From NCBI GenBank assembly GCA_049325335.1, contig JBMOMC010000044.1:32001-96000 (forward strand): 64,000 bases of DNA. The letters are read 5' to 3'. The notes under the pieces are model-generated. The model worked only from the letters and a program-made list of their open reading frames with translations. It was not told where the DNA came from and ran no database searches. The translations under genes were made by a program, and so were the position numbers. Of this stretch, positions 56,722 through 64,000 are shown piece after piece; the first letter of the stretch is position 1, and each line of letters starts with the position of its first letter. The DNA is from Nitrospirota bacterium. GTDB lineage: Bacteria; Nitrospirota; Nitrospiria; 2-01-FULL-66-17.

Positions 56722-56752
56722 CTTGACTTCCGCTCCGAGCCGCTGGTCTAAT
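56722..56752 (+). promoter_or_regulatory. Promoter motif upstream of the DUF2294 gene
   Basis: CTTGACTTC-N14-GGTCTAAT, ending 9 nt before the ATG; no SD sequence. Confidence 0.6.
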
Positions 56753-56761
56753 TTCACCTCT

Positions 56762-57139
56762 ATGCCTAGAACCGTCGGTCAAGTCGAAGCGGAAATTTCC
56801 ACCGCGCTGATCCAATTTGAAAAAGACTTCATGGGTCGCGGGCCGCAGGAGACCCGAGCCTACGTGATCGAAGACATGGTGTTGGTGCGACTCAAGGGCG
56901 TGTTGACGCCGGCGGAGCAGCAGCTCGCCAAAAATACCGAAGGCACCGAGCTGATCAAACGCCTGCGCTCGAATCTGCTGGAACAGGCCCGCGAGCTGCT
57001 GTCAGGCACGATCGAAAAAATCACCGGCCTGAAGGTCACCAGCCTGTACACCGACATCAGCACCAGAACCGGCGAGCGGGTCATTCTGTTTACGCTTCAC
57101 GAGAATTTGGCGGACCGGTATCGCAATACCTCGGCTTGA
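56762..57139 (+). CDS. DUF2294 / MpsC-family protein
   Basis: GQVEAEIS..., FEKDFMGRGP, LKGVLTPAEQQL, LYTDISTRTGERVILFTL; adjacent to the dab/mps genes. Confidence 0.9.
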   Translation: MPRTVGQVEAEISTALIQFEKDFMGRGPQETRAYVIEDMVLVRLKGVLTPAEQQLAKNTEGTELIKRLRSNLLEQARELLSGTIEKITGLKVTSLYTDISTRTGERVILFTLHENLADRYRNTSA

Positions 57140-57165
57140 CTTCGTTCCGGAAGATTCGGTCTAAT
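57135..57165 (+). promoter_or_regulatory. Promoter of the dab operon (same motif as 56722)
   Basis: CTTGACTTC-N14-GGTCTAAT. Confidence 0.6.
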
Positions 57166-57183
57166 AGAGTACATTTTCGGAAG

Positions 57184-57381
57184 ATAGCCCAAAGGATTCC
57201 CATGGAATCAGTTGGGCTGTAGGCCGACTCCCTGGTTGTAGGCGGGTCGGCCTTTTTTTATTATGAGAAGGGGGGTCAACCGGCTACCGATCGACCCTGG
57301 ACGGGCCTCAGGGTGGCTCGGTGGATGGCAAGCCGGCAATGGTTCCACTGAGGGATCGATGCTGGCTTTTTCGTTTTTTTT
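57184..57381 (+). ncRNA. Putative cis-regulatory leader RNA (attenuator) of the dab operon
   Basis: Hairpin A 57184-57220, terminator 57221-57259, a middle hairpin at about 57284-57324, and hairpin B plus U-tract 57330-57381. Confidence 0.6.
57221..57259 (+). terminator. Intrinsic terminator within the dab leader
   Basis: AGGCCGACTC...GGGTCGGCCT 10-bp stem followed by a T-run. Confidence 0.8.
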
Positions 57382-57413
57382 AATGTGCTCGAATCCCGGG
57401 ATCCGTCGCGACG

Positions 57414-60041
57414 ATGCTCGCTGACTACTATCCGCTGCTGACCATCGCGGCGCCGCTCGCGGCGGGCGCCCTGACCGCGCTGCCCGCGCGGCTCATCACC
57501 GAACGACACTACCGCATCGGCGCCGTCTGCCACGCGATCGGGTTCGGCGTCGCCCTCCACACACTCTATGACGTCGCCACACGGGCGCACGGACCGATCC
57601 GTCTGCCGCTGTTCGCGTCGCCGTGGAATTTCGTTCCGTCGTTCGACCTGACGATCGACCGGCTGGCGGCGGTCATGATGCTCGTGATTTCGGGCATCGG
57701 CGCACTCCTTTACATCTATTCCATCCGCTACATGCAGCAAGAACGCGGGCAAGCGCGCTATCAGACGCTGCTCACCCTGACGATCACCACGCTGCTGTGC
57801 ATGGTGTCGAGCGCGAATCTGGTGATGCTGTTCGTGTTCTGGCAGCTTCTGAGCTGGCTGCTCTGCCTGCTCACCTATAATTATGCGCACGCGCCGACCG
57901 CCCAAGGATCGTTTCGCACGTTTGTCATTCTCCGGGCCGGAGACGTCGCGTTTCTCTCCGGAATCGTGCTCGCCTATCACCTCTATGGGACGGTGGAGTT
58001 CTCGCAGCTCTTCTCGCGAGCCGCGGCGGACGCCACCGCCTTTTCACTCCTCTGGCCGAGCAACGGCATCGAAATCAGCGGTGCTACCGCGGTGACGCTG
58101 TTGATCTTCGTCGGCGCCATGAGCAAATCGGCCCAGTTCCCACTGCATCGCTGGGTTCCTGACACGCTCTACGCCCCCACGCCCATCAGCGCGCTGCTTC
58201 ATGCGGGCATCATCAATGCGGGAGGATTTCTCATCAATCGCCTCGCCCCGCTGTATGGTATGAGCCCCTGGACCCTGCACGTCGTATTCGGCGTCGGGGT
58301 ACTCACGACAGTAGTGGGCGCGTCCATGATGTTGACACAGAACGACATCAAGAAAACGCTGGGCTACTCCACCGTCGGCCAGATGGGTTATATGATCATG
58401 GAGTGCGGACTGGGCGCGTTCGCGCTGGCGGTTTTTCATTTGATCGCGCACGGCCTGTTCAAAGCCACGAGCTTTTTGAACTCCGGCAGCGTCATCCAGA
58501 CCGCTCGGAAGGATCTCCGGCTCCCGCATCAGTCTCACGCTTCGGCGGGACCCGGGTTTTCGTCCTTGACGTGGGCGACCGGATTCATCACGTCGCTCGT
58601 GCTGCCGCTCATCATTTTGCTCGCCGCCCACGGCGTCCTGCACATCCCATTGCGAGACGCCCAGGGCGTGGTGATCTTTCTCTTCTTCAGTTGGGTCACA
58701 ACATCGCAGGCGATCCTGACGCTCTATCGCCTGCAACCGGTCGGCTCGTGGAAGGTCGCGGCGATGATGCTGGGCACCCTGTTGCTGGTGATGTTCACAT
58801 ATCTGTTCGCGGCCGAGCGGTTCACCTATTTTCTGTATCCAGAGCCCGGTGTGGTGACCGCGTATTTCCAGGCCGCGGCTCTGCCGACGTGGCTGTTCGA
58901 CTCGGTGATCGCGGTCACGGCCCTGTCGATCACGCTCGGCTGGATCGTCATCTACGCGCGGAGCCATGGCCGGTCGATCTGGGCTCCGGGCCATGTCCCG
59001 CTCTGGATCAATGAGATTTACGCGCGGCTGTATCTGCTATTCGTCAACAACGTCTATCTGGACGGCCTAGCGCTCAGAGTTCACCGGCGCGTCCGGCACC
59101 TCGCCGCGAGCCTCGAGCACAGCCCACGCGTGCTGATGGTCGGGGCGGGAATCGCCCTGGCTGTGGGATGGCATCTCGCACATCCCGCGAGCGGGTGGTC
59201 GGTCGAACCGCTCATGAGAATGTTCCTGGTTGCTGCGATGCTGCCGTTGTTCCCTCTTCACGGGATCTATGTCAGCATGTTAACTCGCACGGGGCGGGGC
59301 TCCACCGGAGTTCTTCCCGTTCTTCTGGCTGGCGCCCTGCCGTTGGCGGGCTTGTATGCTCTGTCGGGTCTGCTCCCCATGCTGGCGCCCGAGGTCCTGC
59401 GCGGCGTGGGGGTCCTTGCCTTGGTTGGAACGCTCTACGGATCGTTCAAGGCTCTGGTCCAGTGCAGGGTGCCACACGTGGTGGCCTATGGGGGCCTCGC
59501 GTACCACTCGATCGTGTGGTGGCATATGATCCGGGTCGGGCATGTCACGCCGCAAGCCGTCGTCTCCACGGCCTCGGCCGTGTTGGTGACGTGCGGGTTG
59601 CTGCTGGCATGGAATCGGGTGCGGGCGCGCTACGGTGATGTCGAACTGGGCCGAATCGGTGGGTTGGCCCGGCCCATGCCGCGCTTTGCCACATTGATGG
59701 CGCTGCTCGTGATGGCCGCCATCGGATTGCCGCCGTTCGGTCTGTTCTTTAGCTACCTCTCCCTGTGGCTCGAACCTGCGCCTCACTTCTCCTTCGGCGG
59801 ATCGCTGGGCTGGGCGATCTTCGCCCTTGCATGGTTCATGGCATCCTGGTATCTGTTCAGGCTCATGCAACGGCTCTTGTTCGGACCGCACCGCGAGGAT
59901 CTTCGGTACGACGATCTCAGCCGCGCCGAGGCCGCGCCGCTGGTCCTGGTCCTTGTGCTCCTGTTGGCCATTGGGATGTTGCCGAACGAACTGATCGATG
60001 TGAGTAGCGCCACCGTCCTGTGGCCGATCGGCGGTGAGTAA
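57414..60041 (+). CDS. dabB: DAB/Mps inorganic-carbon pump membrane subunit (NuoL-like), copy 1, with a NuoM-like C-terminal extension
   Basis: MSKSAQFPLH.W.PD...APTP.SALLHAGIINAGGFL, STVGQMG.M..ECGLG...A.FHLIAHGLFKA; upstream of DUF2309. Confidence 0.85.
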   Translation: MLADYYPLLTIAAPLAAGALTALPARLITERHYRIGAVCHAIGFGVALHTLYDVATRAHGPIRLPLFASPWNFVPSFDLTIDRLAAVMMLVISGIGALLYIYSIRYMQQERGQARYQTLLTLTITTLLCMVSSANLVMLFVFWQLLSWLLCLLTYNYAHAPTAQGSFRTFVILRAGDVAFLSGIVLAYHLYGTVEFSQLFSRAAADATAFSLLWPSNGIEISGATAVTLLIFVGAMSKSAQFPLHRWVPDTLYAPTPISALLHAGIINAGGFLINRLAPLYGMSPWTLHVVFGVGVLTTVVGASMMLTQNDIKKTLGYSTVGQMGYMIMECGLGAFALAVFHLIAHGLFKATSFLNSGSVIQTARKDLRLPHQSHASAGPGFSSLTWATGFITSLVLPLIILLAAHGVLHIPLRDAQGVVIFLFFSWVTTSQAILTLYRLQPVGSWKVAAMMLGTLLLVMFTYLFAAERFTYFLYPEPGVVTAYFQAAALPTWLFDSVIAVTALSITLGWIVIYARSHGRSIWAPGHVPLWINEIYARLYLLFVNNVYLDGLALRVHRRVRHLAASLEHSPRVLMVGAGIALAVGWHLAHPASGWSVEPLMRMFLVAAMLPLFPLHGIYVSMLTRTGRGSTGVLPVLLAGALPLAGLYALSGLLPMLAPEVLRGVGVLALVGTLYGSFKALVQCRVPHVVAYGGLAYHSIVWWHMIRVGHVTPQAVVSTASAVLVTCGLLLAWNRVRARYGDVELGRIGGLARPMPRFATLMALLVMAAIGLPPFGLFFSYLSLWLEPAPHFSFGGSLGWAIFALAWFMASWYLFRLMQRLLFGPHREDLRYDDLSRAEAAPLVLVLVLLLAIGMLPNELIDVSSATVLWPIGGE

Positions 60042-62652
60042 CATGTGGCGCGAGTACTACCCTCTGTTAATCCCCGCGGGGCCGGTGGTCGCGGCGCTGC
60101 TGACGGCCCTCCCGTCCCGACTGATCCGCGAGTGGCACTATCGGATCGGGACCTTCGCGCACACGGTGGCGTTCGGCTGCGCCGTGGTGTTGCTCATCCA
60201 GGTGGCGGGGTCTTCGGAGCAAACACCCGTTCGCCTCGATCTGTTCCCCTCGCCGTGGCGGTTTGTCCCATCCTTTACGCTCGCGGTCGACCGCCTGGCC
60301 GCGGTGCTGATGGTGGTGATCTCGGCGATCGGCGCGCTGCTGTATTTCTACTCGATCCGGTACATGCAGCAGGAACGCGGCCGCGCCCGGTACCATGCCC
60401 TGCTCTCCGTCCAGATTGCGGTGCTGCTCGGCATGGTTTCCAGCGCCAATCTGGTCATGTTGTTCGTGTTCTGGCAGCTACTCGGGTGGTTGCTATCCCT
60501 CCTGTCCTACAACTATGCGCATCCACCGACCTCGCAGGGGGCATTCCGAACGTTTATCATGTTGCGGCTTGGGGACATTGTCTTTTTGTCGGGCATCGTC
60601 CTCGCGTTCACCTTGTACGGGACTGTAGATCTCTCGCAGCTCTTTGTCCGGGCCGCGGAGAATCAGTCCACGCTCACCCTGTTCTGGCCCGGAAGCGGGC
60701 TGGACGTCAGCGGCGCGACGGCCGTCACGCTGCTGATCTTTGTAGGGGCCATGAGCAAGTCCGCGCAGATCCCGCTGCACATGTGGCTACCGGATTCGCT
60801 GTACGCCCCCACCACGATCCACGCCCTGCTTCACGCCGGCATCATCAACGCCGGCGGCTTCCTGCTGACGCGTCTCGCCCCGCTCTTCGTCCTCGCGCCC
60901 ACCACGCTTCATGTGACGTTCGCGGTCGGCCTGCTCACCGCGCTGTTGGGCGCGTCCATGATGCTGACGCAGAACGACATCAAGAAGACCCTCGGCTATT
61001 CCACCATCGGACAAATGGGCTACATGATTATGGAATGCGGGCTGGGCGCCTTTTCCCTGGCCGTGTTTCACCTGATCGCCCACGGGCTCTTCAAGGCGAC
61101 GATCTTTCTCAACTGCGGCAACGTCATTCATCTCGCCCGCCGGGAACCACGATCACCGCACAGGCCCGATGCGCGCGGGTTGACCTCGTTCTCGGCGATC
61201 CCCTGGGCGACCGGTTTCATCACGACGCTGGTGCTCCCCCTCGTCATTTTGCTGGCCGCGCATGGAGTGCTCCAGATCCCGTTGCGAATCGGCGAGGGGG
61301 GCGTGATCTTTCTGTTCTTTAGCTGGGTGACGTCCTCGCAGGCGATCCTCACGCTGTATCGTCTGCGAGCGGTCGAGTCGTGGAAGGTCGCGGGCCTCAT
61401 GCTCGTCGCGCTGCTGCTGGTGATGTTCACGTATTTGTTCGCGGCCGAGCGCTTCACGCGCTTTCTGTTTCCGGATCCCGGCGTGGTCACCGCGTATTTT
61501 GAAGCCGCCGCCCTGCCCGGCCCCGTGTTCGACGCGCTCATCGCGGTGACCGCACTCGTGGCCGCCATGGGATGGATTCTGATTTACTCCCGGAGCCACG
61601 GTCGACCGATACCCTTCCCCGCGCGGATCAGCGCACTGCACACCATCGGGTACCTGTTCCTGGTGAACCGGCTGTACCTCGACGGTCTTGCACTGCGATT
61701 GGGACAGGGATTCAGCCGCGCGATCCAGGCGCTCGATCACAACCGCCTGTTTCCACCGGTTGCGGCGCTGCTTGCCGCGGTGCCCGCGATCGCCGTGTCG
61801 GCGGGAACGTTTCCGGATCTCGCGGGCACGCGGATCGCGCTCTGTACACTGACGGCGCTCGCGCTTCCCTTGTTTCCGCTTCACGGCGCGTATGTGCTCG
61901 TCCTGACCCGGTTGCCCGGATTCGCCTCCTCGGCCATGGCGCTCCTGTTGCCGCTGGCCGGTCTATATGGAGCGGCGAGTGTCCTCCCCGAGCTGCCCGC
62001 CAGGGTATTGACGGGGGTGAAAGTGCTGGCATTGTCCGGGGCTGTCTATGGCTCGATTAAAGCGCTCGCGCAGGTTCGGGCGACCGGGTTCATCGCCTAC
62101 GGGGGGGTGGCGCTCTATTCGATTCTCTGGTGGCATGTGGCGGTGGCCGGCCGCGTGATGTCACAGGACGCCATCTTCGCTGGGGCCGCCGCGCTGGTCG
62201 CCGCGGGGCTGTGTCTGGCGTGGCGCGCACTGCAGATACGGTACGGCGATCTCACCATGAACCGGATCGGCGGACTGGCCCGTCCCATGCCGCGGTTCGC
62301 CACCCTGTTGGCCCTGCTGGTCATGGCGGCTGCGGGGTTGCCGCCCTTCGGCCTGTTCTCCGGGTACGTCGCCCTGCTGCTCGATCCATCGAACGAGGTC
62401 GCCCTCGGTAGCTCCGTGGCCATCGGGGTCGTGCTCCTGGTATGGTTCATTGCGTCGTGGTATCTGTTCAAGCTGATGCAGCGTCTCCTATTCGGCCCCC
62501 ATAGGCCGGATCTTCCCTACCAGGATCTTCGCCCTGTAGAAATTGCGCCGCTGGTCGCCGTTCTGCTCATGCTCCTGGCGCTGGGCGTGGCGCCGCATAC
62601 GCTCATCGCTGAAGTCGACACCCTTATGCTGACAGCTTGGAGTCCTCGATGA
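60034..62652 (+). CDS. dabB: DAB/Mps membrane subunit, copy 2 (tandem paralog)
   Basis: Colinear with copy 1 over its full length, with long identical stretches. Confidence 0.85.
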   Translation: MSNMWREYYPLLIPAGPVVAALLTALPSRLIREWHYRIGTFAHTVAFGCAVVLLIQVAGSSEQTPVRLDLFPSPWRFVPSFTLAVDRLAAVLMVVISAIGALLYFYSIRYMQQERGRARYHALLSVQIAVLLGMVSSANLVMLFVFWQLLGWLLSLLSYNYAHPPTSQGAFRTFIMLRLGDIVFLSGIVLAFTLYGTVDLSQLFVRAAENQSTLTLFWPGSGLDVSGATAVTLLIFVGAMSKSAQIPLHMWLPDSLYAPTTIHALLHAGIINAGGFLLTRLAPLFVLAPTTLHVTFAVGLLTALLGASMMLTQNDIKKTLGYSTIGQMGYMIMECGLGAFSLAVFHLIAHGLFKATIFLNCGNVIHLARREPRSPHRPDARGLTSFSAIPWATGFITTLVLPLVILLAAHGVLQIPLRIGEGGVIFLFFSWVTSSQAILTLYRLRAVESWKVAGLMLVALLLVMFTYLFAAERFTRFLFPDPGVVTAYFEAAALPGPVFDALIAVTALVAAMGWILIYSRSHGRPIPFPARISALHTIGYLFLVNRLYLDGLALRLGQGFSRAIQALDHNRLFPPVAALLAAVPAIAVSAGTFPDLAGTRIALCTLTALALPLFPLHGAYVLVLTRLPGFASSAMALLLPLAGLYGAASVLPELPARVLTGVKVLALSGAVYGSIKALAQVRATGFIAYGGVALYSILWWHVAVAGRVMSQDAIFAGAAALVAAGLCLAWRALQIRYGDLTMNRIGGLARPMPRFATLLALLVMAAAGLPPFGLFSGYVALLLDPSNEVALGSSVAIGVVLLVWFIASWYLFKLMQRLLFGPHRPDLPYQDLRPVEIAPLVAVLLMLLALGVAPHTLIAEVDTLMLTAWSPR

Positions 62653-64000
62653 ACCCATTGGAAGTGGAAGCGCGCCCGCGCTATCAGGAGACCCAACGGA
62701 CCGAACTACGCACGCTGGTCCGGATCGCGAGCGAGATGGTCGCGCAGTACTGGCCCATGCGGACCTTCGTGCACCACAATCCGTTGCACGGGCTCGAGGA
62801 ACTTCACTTCGAGGAAGCCGCGCGGCGCGCGCGCCAGGCGCTCGGTGGAATGACCTATCTGCCGAACGAGGTGTTTCGCGACTATGTGCGCACGGGGCGC
62901 ATTCGGTCAGATGAGATCGATGACGCCCTCAAACCATTGGCCCAGGATCACCAGGTTGCCCTGGGCGATCGCAAGCTGACGCATCTGGACGTGCTGCGTG
63001 CCCATCTGCTGCACGGCATGTCCGCCCCTCCGGACGACGTCCTGGATGCCATGATCGAACGGCGGAAAGATCGCCGTGCGATCCTCGCGCTCGCGGACCG
63101 CCTGGGCCGCGAAGCCCCACGGGCGATCGAAGAGGCTCGCGCCCAAGCGGAGCTGGCCGCGATCGGCAGATCGATCACGCTGGCCGCCTGGTGCGATCGC
63201 GCGTTGGGCACGCAGGTGACCGAACAGATCAACCGGGAAATGATCAAGTGGTGCGAGGCGTTCCTCGACGAGGAGCACGCCGCCTGGTCCATGCCGGGAC
63301 GAGACATGGGGTTCTACTCCGCGTGGAAGTGGCTCGCGAGCCTGGAGTGGTCCCCCTGCGGTATCGCGCGAAGCCGCCGGAAGCTGGCCGACCTCCCGGA
63401 CAATGCGGAAGAGGCCTTGCTTGATCACTTGGCGGTCCTGGGCGTTTCGCCGGACGCGTGGCAGGACTATCTCGCGTCCCACTTCGTGGCTATGCCTGGC
63501 TGGCCAGGCTTTATCAAATGGCGTGCGGATCAGACCGACTATGAATGGCAGCAGGCCTATCCGATCGACCTGATCCAATACCTGGCGGTGCGCGTGTGGT
63601 ACGAGCGAGAGCTGGTCCAGCAGGTCTGCCGGCGGGAACTGGGTGGCGACGGGACGGTGGAGGCCATCCGCGCCGCGGCGACATCAAAGGCCGCCCGCGC
63701 CGCCGAGAGTCCTGACACCCTTCGGCGCACCGCGGCGTGGCGCCTGCTGGCCCTGGCCCATGCGTTGGACGTGGCACCTCCGGCGCTCATGGACACGGAG
63801 CCAGCGATCCTCCAGACGCTGGTGGACTGGCTGGATGCCTTTCCGGAAGCGGCGCACGGACCGGTGTGGCTGCGAGCGTTCGAGGCCGGCTATCGGGACC
63901 GGCTCTTGGAGCAGCTCAGGCCGCAAGTGGTCCAGTCTCCCAAGGCGACTGCGGTTCGCCCGCAAGCGCAGGCGGTCTTTTGCATCGATGTGCGCTCGGA
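62649..64000 (+). CDS. dabA: DabA/MpsB (DUF2309) beta-carbonic-anhydrase-like subunit, 5' part (absent from the ORF track because no stop falls in the window)
   Basis: ATGA overlap with the dabB stop; translates MNPLEVE...YWPMRTFVHHNPLHGLE...MPGWPGFIKWR...QAVFCIDVRS (Zn-ligand motif) at the window end. Confidence 0.93.
   Translation, partial: MNPLEVEARPRYQETQRTELRTLVRIASEMVAQYWPMRTFVHHNPLHGLEELHFEEAARRARQALGGMTYLPNEVFRDYVRTGRIRSDEIDDALKPLAQDHQVALGDRKLTHLDVLRAHLLHGMSAPPDDVLDAMIERRKDRRAILALADRLGREAPRAIEEARAQAELAAIGRSITLAAWCDRALGTQVTEQINREMIKWCEAFLDEEHAAWSMPGRDMGFYSAWKWLASLEWSPCGIARSRRKLADLPDNAEEALLDHLAVLGVSPDAWQDYLASHFVAMPGWPGFIKWRADQTDYEWQQAYPIDLIQYLAVRVWYERELVQQVCRRELGGDGTVEAIRAAATSKAARAAESPDTLRRTAAWRLLALAHALDVAPPALMDTEPAILQTLVDWLDAFPEAAHGPVWLRAFEAGYRDRLLEQLRPQVVQSPKATAVRPQAQAVFCIDVRS

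Follow-up and report, generated by a model that had tools for sequence, protein, structure and literature searches.

A candidate MpsC-linked double attenuator ahead of a DAB inorganic-carbon pump operon in Nitrospirota

Known attenuation systems and the dab locus

In the BglG, SacY, and LicT systems, a protein dimer stabilizes a weak RAT hairpin that overlaps the 5′ strand of a terminator; the default state is OFF, and autoregulation occurs. The ANTAR antiterminators (AmiR, NasT, EutV) are dimers that can respond to an oxyanion and bind two small hexaloop hairpins, HutP binds single-stranded repeats, and PyrR promotes termination. The Na+-I/DUF1646, nhaA, and fluoride riboswitches are small leaders, found also in tandem copies, in which an overlapping terminator precedes ion transporters. 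The leader described here, with the small protein MpsC encoded just 5′ of it, resembles each of these in part. Its RNA layout, a hairpin with two internal loops overlapping a terminator, fits that of BglG/SacY–RAT, and a regulator dimer is predicted, but the RNA is of another kind, PTS phosphorylation is not the signal, and CAT and PRD domains are absent from MpsC (PF10057 being the sole match at E up to 0.001). MpsC is like ANTAR in being a small putative output domain that also occurs fused to receivers; it is, however, an alpha/beta protein with no ANTAR match, and its RNA partner would be one long hairpin with internal loops, dual hexaloop hairpins being absent. HutP and PyrR, which bind ligands, likewise come with a small regulator gene directly 5′ of its attenuator (as at L198 and L199), but neither matches MpsC in sequence. 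The ion-sensing riboswitches share the small leader, overlapping terminator, downstream transporter, and tandem copies, whereas our leader has no Rfam 15 match and is strictly linked to a protein gene.

How inorganic carbon is sensed, and how DAB/MpsAB and SbtA are controlled outside cyanobacteria, is the question addressed here. The available parts of three reports describe the same pump families with an adjoining mpsC (ybcI) and an expression that responds to CO2 or medium (PMC6689103, PMC8552792, bioRxiv 10.64898/2026.09.08.750065); the present operon differs from the known ones in its two dabB genes and double attenuator. According to the accessible text of PMC6689103, Staphylococcus aureus mpsA expression is lower at 5% CO2, deletion of mpsC leaves growth unimpaired, and mpsAB expressed from the native promoter is enough, without mpsC, to complement an Escherichia coli can mutant; there, and in what is accessible of PMC8552792, MpsC is set aside as a non-functional part of its operon. 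In Bacillus subtilis, absence of c-di-AMP raises ndhF-ybcC 7-fold (PMC7857571, partial text), and the available portion of a 2026 preprint leaves mechanisms of inorganic-carbon control to be explored (bioRxiv 10.64898/2026.09.08.750065). A full-text literature search, in which subscription papers and supplements were thinly covered, turned up neither this RNA nor a function for MpsC, RNA binding included, and the main texts of PMC11109978 and PMC8632094, as well as one supplement of the latter, mention neither DUF2294 nor a carboxykinase.

The window, the whole 64,000-nt stretch analyzed (G000:C44:32001-96000), carries on its + strand mpsC, a 274-nt gap, dabB1, dabB2, and dabA, in that order:

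56723..56752, + strand: mpsC promoter-like site, TTGACT / 18 nt / TCTAAT, 9 nt 5′ of the ATG
56762..57139, + strand: mpsC (DUF2294), 125 aa, PF10057 at E 9.7e-39; putative trans-acting antiterminator
57136..57165, + strand: dab leader promoter-like site, TTGACT / 18 nt / TCTAAT, −35 box overlapping the mpsC stop
57414..60041, + strand: dabB1, NuoL-like (PF00361/PF00662)
60034..62652, + strand: dabB2, NuoL-like (PF00361/PF00662)
62637..64000, + strand, continuing beyond the window: dabA (PF10070)

MpsC scores 132.3 bits against PF10057 (Pfam cut-off 23), which places it in the MpsC/DUF2294 family, and a NuoL-like DabB gene adjoins the PF10070 DabA gene, the mark of a DAB/MpsAB pump operon. The Pfam matches (PF10057, two NuoL-like DabB proteins, and PF10070) thus bear out an earlier note on this DNA that had put a DUF2294 gene beside a DAB pump. 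The two dabB genes (57414-62652) are tandem paralogs, 61% identical, 5′ of a single dabA, an arrangement seen too at some loci of family f3, which is probably Nitrospira and kin. Directly 3′ of dabA, past the window edge, lies a P-II-family (SbtB-like) gene (PF00543, L001:5752-6090).

The promoter-like sites of mpsC and the dab leader are near-identical, and their pattern occurs four times in the whole genome. With its site 9 nt from the ATG, the mpsC mRNA would be leaderless or nearly so. The site of the dab leader, a feature absent from the earlier note, has a noncanonical −10 box (TCTAAT) in which the usual A at the second position is missing, and it would put the transcription start near 57171-57173. 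With a site of this kind at the mpsC stop, the dab leader is probably a separate transcript. A similar site stands 8-19 nt upstream of 24 of 30 copies of the first leader unit. A promoter/terminator consensus scan of the window listed no promoter and neither of the two terminators described below.

Two tandem modules in the dab leader

The leader folds with z = −5.19 (0 of 200 shuffles equally low) and consists of two tandem antiterminator/terminator modules, A with T1 and then M with B:

57177..57227, + strand: module 1, antiterminator form, including hairpin A (57184-57220); from nascent folds and pair counts
57221..57259, + strand: terminator T1, 14-bp stem with one bulge, then 7 U; −23.7 kcal/mol
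57274..57334, + strand: module 2, antiterminator form; from alignment A3, model R2, and nascent folds
57330..57381, + strand: terminator B with U-tract; hairpin 57330-57368, −22.5 kcal/mol, then U5-CG-U8

Refolding reproduced hairpin A, T1, the middle stem M (57284-57324, between T1 and B), and B with its U-tract where the earlier note had them. Hairpin A (−21.2 kcal/mol) has the 9-bp stem, 2×2 loop (AG/AG), and 6-bp stem described there. The two terminators that the note placed ahead of dabB are also sound, both T1 and B folding as a GC-rich stem that runs directly into a U-tract, as intrinsic terminators do.

In the antiterminator form of module 1, an outer stem absent from the earlier note pairs 57177-57180 with 57224-57227, the start of T1. 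Above it follow a basal 3×3 purine loop (57181-83 / 57221-23), the 9-bp stem, an upper 2×2 loop (57193-94 / 57210-11), and the upper stem; the loops are 9 bp apart, and their starts are separated by 11-12 nt, about one helical turn. The first bases of T1 are common to both structures, and by computed folds and pair counts the alternative fold shares sequence with the terminator so that only one of the two can form, the structural hallmark of an attenuator. In nascent folds, in which the RNA is cut before the terminator’s 3′ strand is made, the window’s outer stem has P = 1.00 up to 57248, and nearly all of 30 unit-1 copies have the outer-stem form as their minimum (L035 being mis-anchored). 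For the complete module, the terminator state reaches −46.4 kcal/mol vs. −35.0 kcal/mol when the antiterminator is enforced, a gap of ∼11 kcal/mol.

Module 2 has the same logic in another architecture. Its outer stem pairs 57274-76 with 57332-34 and captures the start of B; a short stem and loops lead up to M, which in relatives carries a basal 3×3 purine loop, 9 bp, and a 2×2 loop and thus plays the part of A. At its basal loop, the window’s module 2 strays somewhat from the relatives’ consensus. Families f3 and f12 have a second subtype with a purine loop that is conserved, often another one 9 bp above it, and an overlap with the same terminator start. In family f10 (L010, L013, L014), repeat-like insertions with duplicated terminator ends occupy the place of module 2, 3′ of unit 1. 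At L236:297-429 (− strand), a segment of the element’s 3′ strand recurs about five times in tandem within the hairpin, 5′ of an ORF that is presumably isocitrate/isopropylmalate dehydrogenase-like.

The earlier note had instead taken A and B for hairpins of one architecture and twin binding sites of one protein. Their likeness is indeed above a pair-preserving shuffle null (p ∼ 0.0016, post hoc), and the upper-stem letters of B resemble A in the closest relatives, perhaps through an old duplication. The common architecture, however, does not hold: B’s minimum-energy fold has a 1×1 rather than a 2×2 loop, a 2×2 loop occurs in just 1 of 13 B hairpins (the window and 12 relatives, 2 of them poorly anchored), and the B hairpin of L015 is a perfect stem. 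Since only the base and U-tract of B are conserved and its internal loop is not kept, B is a terminator and nothing more, namely that of M, and M is A’s counterpart. Many leaders, moreover, carry A and T1 alone, and we regard twin sites for one protein as extremely unlikely. A 19-nt match to T1 at C7:422620 was dismissed as chance, lying inside a coding region.

Conservation, downstream genes, and co-occurrence with mpsC

At the gathering score, no Rfam 15 family matched the window or 19 related loci, and none of relevance appeared at E up to 10; the Na+, Li+, fluoride, and guanidine riboswitch families and PyrR all stayed below their gathering cut-offs. The Rfam comparison proposed in the earlier note therefore leaves the leader outside every family of that release.

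Covariation was assessed in two alignments. The 12 copies from which model R1 was built show double changes in 10 of 25 pairs (MAFFT alignment), and the 78 matches from which model R3 was built show them in 23 of 25, in an alignment fitted to the model and including one partial antisense match. In the R3 alignment 90.8% of cells pair, compared with 21-45% when slid, and the T1 helix is paired in 96.5% of cells over the 78 matches. For the outer stem, 77 distinct copies were anchored by script (∼5 mis-anchored, 7 failed, and 10 of other subtypes or weak left out beforehand), the anchor itself imposing the G that adjoins the stem. Across positions 4-8, pairing is found in 252 of 385 cells; slid controls give 60-156. 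Pairing exceeds shuffles at positions 6 and 7 (31 and 1 of 2000, respectively; 43 of 77 vs. 37.8 shuffled at position 7), a modest signal from related sequences. The GG/CC pairs of this stem are nearly invariant, so that recognition of structure and of sequence are not separable here.

The element recurs well beyond the window. At metagenome mpsC loci, R3 matched 61 of 80 at E up to 0.01 and, among loci outside its training, 25 of 44 (three of the 25 close to seeds); 78 of 82 matches lie on the mpsC strand. It is present in Nitrospirota/Nitrospiria records, and in Bacillota we found the orders mpsC, element, sodium-dependent bicarbonate permease (Anoxybacillus) and mpsC, element (Acetoanaerobium); a whole-record R3 search recovered the Acetoanaerobium element and missed the Anoxybacillus one. 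Within the window genome itself, neither module turned up again, nor did mpsC. These copies bear on whether there is a switch at all. Ordinary mpsC terminators or a small RNA, with dab expressed by leak or from a hidden promoter, would agree with T1 lying right behind mpsC and with the consensus scan that listed no promoter. Such a reading deserves hardly any credence, however, as copies with no mpsC upstream have a promoter-like site of their own (L027, L036, L091), and the loops and 5′ arm are conserved beyond the needs of a terminator.

We then scanned 28 first ORFs 3′ of the element, with crude ORF calling. Five encode PEPCK, four MpsC-like proteins, and two PurC; IDH, AccC, PurE, Sbt_1, a putative carbonic anhydrase, and DUF4914 also occur, and about one-third are not obviously carbon-related (four aminotransferases, an ABC permease, a methyltransferase, ExbB, and a few others). 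Within the phylum, the element lies 5′ of dabB, dabA, sbtA-like genes, and icd, and also of ORFs that we take to be ATP citrate lyase, beta-carbonic anhydrase, and SulP; at L033 and L035 it precedes mpsC itself. In the window genome it matches at the dab leader only, the icd-like and ATP-citrate-lyase-like genes having no match. Inorganic carbon is all that the otherwise unrelated transporters (DAB, Sbt_1) and carboxylation enzymes (PEPCK, AccC, PurE, IDH, putative carbonic anhydrase) have in common. Together with the covariation over 78 matches, this survey agrees with the earlier note’s expectation of a conserved, covarying attenuator ahead of inorganic-carbon genes. Divergent MpsC-like paralogs sit behind element copies of their own (L143:2111-2494, L146:4236-4499, L166:1035-1661, and L138:2373-2618) and are possible anti-antiterminators or heterodimer partners.

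An MpsC antiterminator might also answer to some other input, such as Na+, pH, formate, a nucleotide relayed by P-II, or, in receiver fusions, phosphorylation. The downstream genes unrelated to carbon, the formate dehydrogenase neighbors of distant paralogs, the P-II gene that ends the dab operon, and the 7-fold rise of B. subtilis ndhF-ybcC without c-di-AMP (PMC7857571, partial text) would all suit this. Unrelated transporters (DAB, Sbt_1) and carboxylation enzymes nevertheless share only inorganic carbon, and we consider a different input quite unlikely.

The tie between motif and DUF2294 that the earlier note had predicted is apparent across 121 genomes of the class: 64 have both motif and mpsC, 42 have neither, 6 have the motif only, and 9 mpsC only, counts that come from related genomes in which kin are not independent. 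Each of the 35 genomes that show the second-subtype pattern also has an MpsC match; in f3/f12, the 10 genomes lacking MpsC (completeness 98% or higher, DabA in 8) are all without the pattern. Five of the six motif-only genomes carry degenerate copies: in the closed, mpsC-less G215 and G243, mutations have hit both conserved loop positions and the dabA that follows carries a stop, and the copies of G013, G019, and G184 are degenerate as well. The sixth, G218 (91% complete, 610 contigs), has an intact element and no MpsC match. Of the genomes with mpsC only, G012 combines module 2 with a frameshifted mpsC, a variant element occurs in G149, and mpsC is interrupted by stops in G208 and G211. In family f7, DabA is found in 11 of 15 genomes and MpsC in 2 of 15; three of four folded dab leaders from its mpsC-less members keep the promoter without a terminator, the exception being L096 (G193, 95% complete), which keeps a terminator-like hairpin. 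Outside the class, MpsC occurs in 7 of 123 genomes, all among the 8 with an R3 match (E up to 0.001), and the eighth motif genome, without MpsC, is 71% complete. Some element copies lie on contigs other than the mpsC contig (G048). On an MpsC tree (73 rows, labels by eye), RNA subtypes group with protein clades, requiring 7 changes with a minimum of 6; kin share labels, so this grouping was not counted as co-evolution.

Two further readings were weighed against this distribution. In the first, the looped hairpin is a riboswitch that binds a small ligand directly, and mpsC is merely co-regulated. Terminator overlap, tandem copies, and a coherent downstream gene set, all seen here, are typical of riboswitches, and six motif-positive class genomes lack an MpsC match. 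Dispensability of S. aureus mpsC also fits (PMC6689103, partial text). However, five of those six genomes carry degenerate copies and the element decays where mpsC is absent, invariant bases are few, and the core is a pseudo-symmetric loop that occurs in rearranged forms. Moreover, with a conserved basal loop that is confined to the read-through structure, a ligand would mean ON; a bicarbonate-ON switch would run the pump when it is not needed, and this wrong sign means that the ligand would have to be a metabolite accumulating at bicarbonate shortage, such as the PurK/PurE substrate. We judge a riboswitch unlikely.

In the second, MpsC would promote termination in the manner of PyrR, binding hairpin A or M of the terminator state when carbon is high. 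The upper loop is present in both states, and the lack of a growth defect in the S. aureus mpsC deletion (available part of PMC6689103) fits. Yet the terminator is ahead by ∼11 kcal/mol unaided, read-through is the one state in which the conserved basal loop forms, and the terminators go when mpsC goes, which makes this version very unlikely.

MpsC as a candidate antiterminator

MpsC is modeled as an alpha/beta domain (pLDDT 94.9). A predicted homodimer through the beta-sheet scored 0.46 (pLDDT 84), with 0.00 for the best of three controls, and the runs agree in at least 95% of contacts; 20 of 30 solved dimers, and 1 of 23 monomers, attain the mark set for this score. The modeling thus supports a dimer. 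Four basic residues (R26, R43, K66, and R69), each conserved to 92% or more, fall outside the residues named for the dimer interface, and the net charge is zero (17 K+R, 17 D+E). Foldseek with the model returned nothing at E at or below 0.001, and the PDB sequence search, fold searches, and Atlas gave no clear relative. Of the RNA-binding folds considered (KH/RbfA, uL23), RbfA in the VIA fold comparison (Z 5.7, rmsd 3.8, 88 aligned) was tied with non-RNA folds, the best Z being 6.6.

Among 40 longer homologs scanned, two (P0211, P0227) carry an N-terminal receiver, and none is a CsrA–MpsC fusion. Receiver fusion is the layout of output domains such as ANTAR, and the receiver-fused MpsC is possibly a response-regulator output domain, perhaps an unlisted one. 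A distant DUF2294 subfamily of Bacillus/Priestia adjoins the formate dehydrogenase genes fdhD/fdhF (L225:5983-7152, L226:2679-7140), with no R3 match in the L225 record; these proteins may sense formate or act differently.

We hold it probable, with moderate confidence, that MpsC binds RNA and acts as an antiterminator when inorganic carbon is low. The proposal builds on the computed anatomy, conservation, covariation, gene associations, co-occurrence, and predicted dimer, and from these we infer the transcription start and ends, RNA binding by MpsC, the ON polarity, and the signal. Transcription of dab would start just 3′ of the mpsC stop. In each module, the hairpin with its two purine-rich internal loops, one helical turn apart, would form first, and its weak outer stem of 3-4 bp would transiently capture the first bases of the terminator. 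Unaided, the terminator would displace the outer stem (by ∼11 kcal/mol in module 1), and the default would be OFF. An MpsC dimer would bind the looped hairpin and clamp the outer stem, allowing polymerase to pass both terminators into dabB-dabB-dabA. Because the pump is needed at low carbon, MpsC should bind when inorganic carbon is scarce; HCO3−/CO2 would release it, or a carbon-reporting metabolite would steer it. Two modules in series would give less leak and a sharper response.

Several lines of evidence argue for antitermination by MpsC. The basal loop is conserved although no structure but the read-through one contains it, the terminator prevails without help, and where mpsC is lost the terminators mostly vanish. 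The nascent outer stem, outer-stem pairing, covariation, and co-occurrence with mpsC point the same way, as do the copies before mpsC and MpsC-like paralogs and on contigs without mpsC, and the receiver fusions, conserved basic residues, and predicted dimer of the protein. Lower S. aureus mpsA at 5% CO2 is also consistent with it (PMC6689103, partial text). Against it stand the dispensability of S. aureus mpsC and the function of mpsAB without it (same source, available part), the lack of an R3 match on an S. pettenkoferi mpsAB-mpsC plasmid, the terminator-like hairpin kept in L096, and the intact element without MpsC in G218, in addition to the one-third of ORFs not related to carbon, the formate dehydrogenase neighbors, and the zero net charge of MpsC.

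The element is real, conserved, and uncatalogued; it represents a new RNA family and, with MpsC, a probable new family of regulators within a known kind of control. Its distribution suggests that MpsC/DUF2294 may hold both switches open, which would be a new bacterial control of carbon uptake. By analogy it would work as RAT/terminator pairs do, yet it falls outside that class, with no CAT, PRD, or ANTAR domain and no Rfam family. More tentatively, MpsC/DUF2294 could be a widespread, hitherto unrecognized bicarbonate/CO2-sensing RNA-binding domain that, with a modular double-loop RNA, serves in several phyla a dedicated antitermination regulon for inorganic carbon, made up of pumps, carboxylases, and carbonic anhydrases, and that acts as a new two-component output domain; the two architecturally different tandem modules found here would then be a two-step gate on the DAB pump. 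The analysis gives MpsC a testable function and defines an RNA family with a predicted regulon, and 125 aa with ∼90 nt could serve as a compact, portable CO2-responsive switch.

Some leaders outside the element were also recorded. The staphylococcal mpsA leader (L200:2418-2500) has a promoter-like site, a terminator-like hairpin at its end, and no R3 match, and is possibly a distant variant. Weak R1 matches 5′ of nifH (L043, L050) and terminator-only matches were set aside as a different element or noise. In that family, f21, a conserved hairpin and terminator lie directly 5′ of a nifH-like ORF (L043:1501-1573, − strand; L050:1501-1590, + strand), and the hairpin looks like a separate nitrogenase-gene attenuator. 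Weak R3 matches in the mpsC-less family f13 (L213, L214, L222; MpsC absent in six genomes) likewise look like a different motif. The f13 leader, which has no Rfam match, consists of a small GC hairpin, a second hairpin, and a terminator, with a promoter upstream (L213:149-223, − strand; L214:1501-1566, − strand; L222:1501-1591, + strand). It precedes an ORF that we assume to be beta-CA-like or NhaD/ArsB-like and is a possible candidate for an ion or carbon riboswitch.
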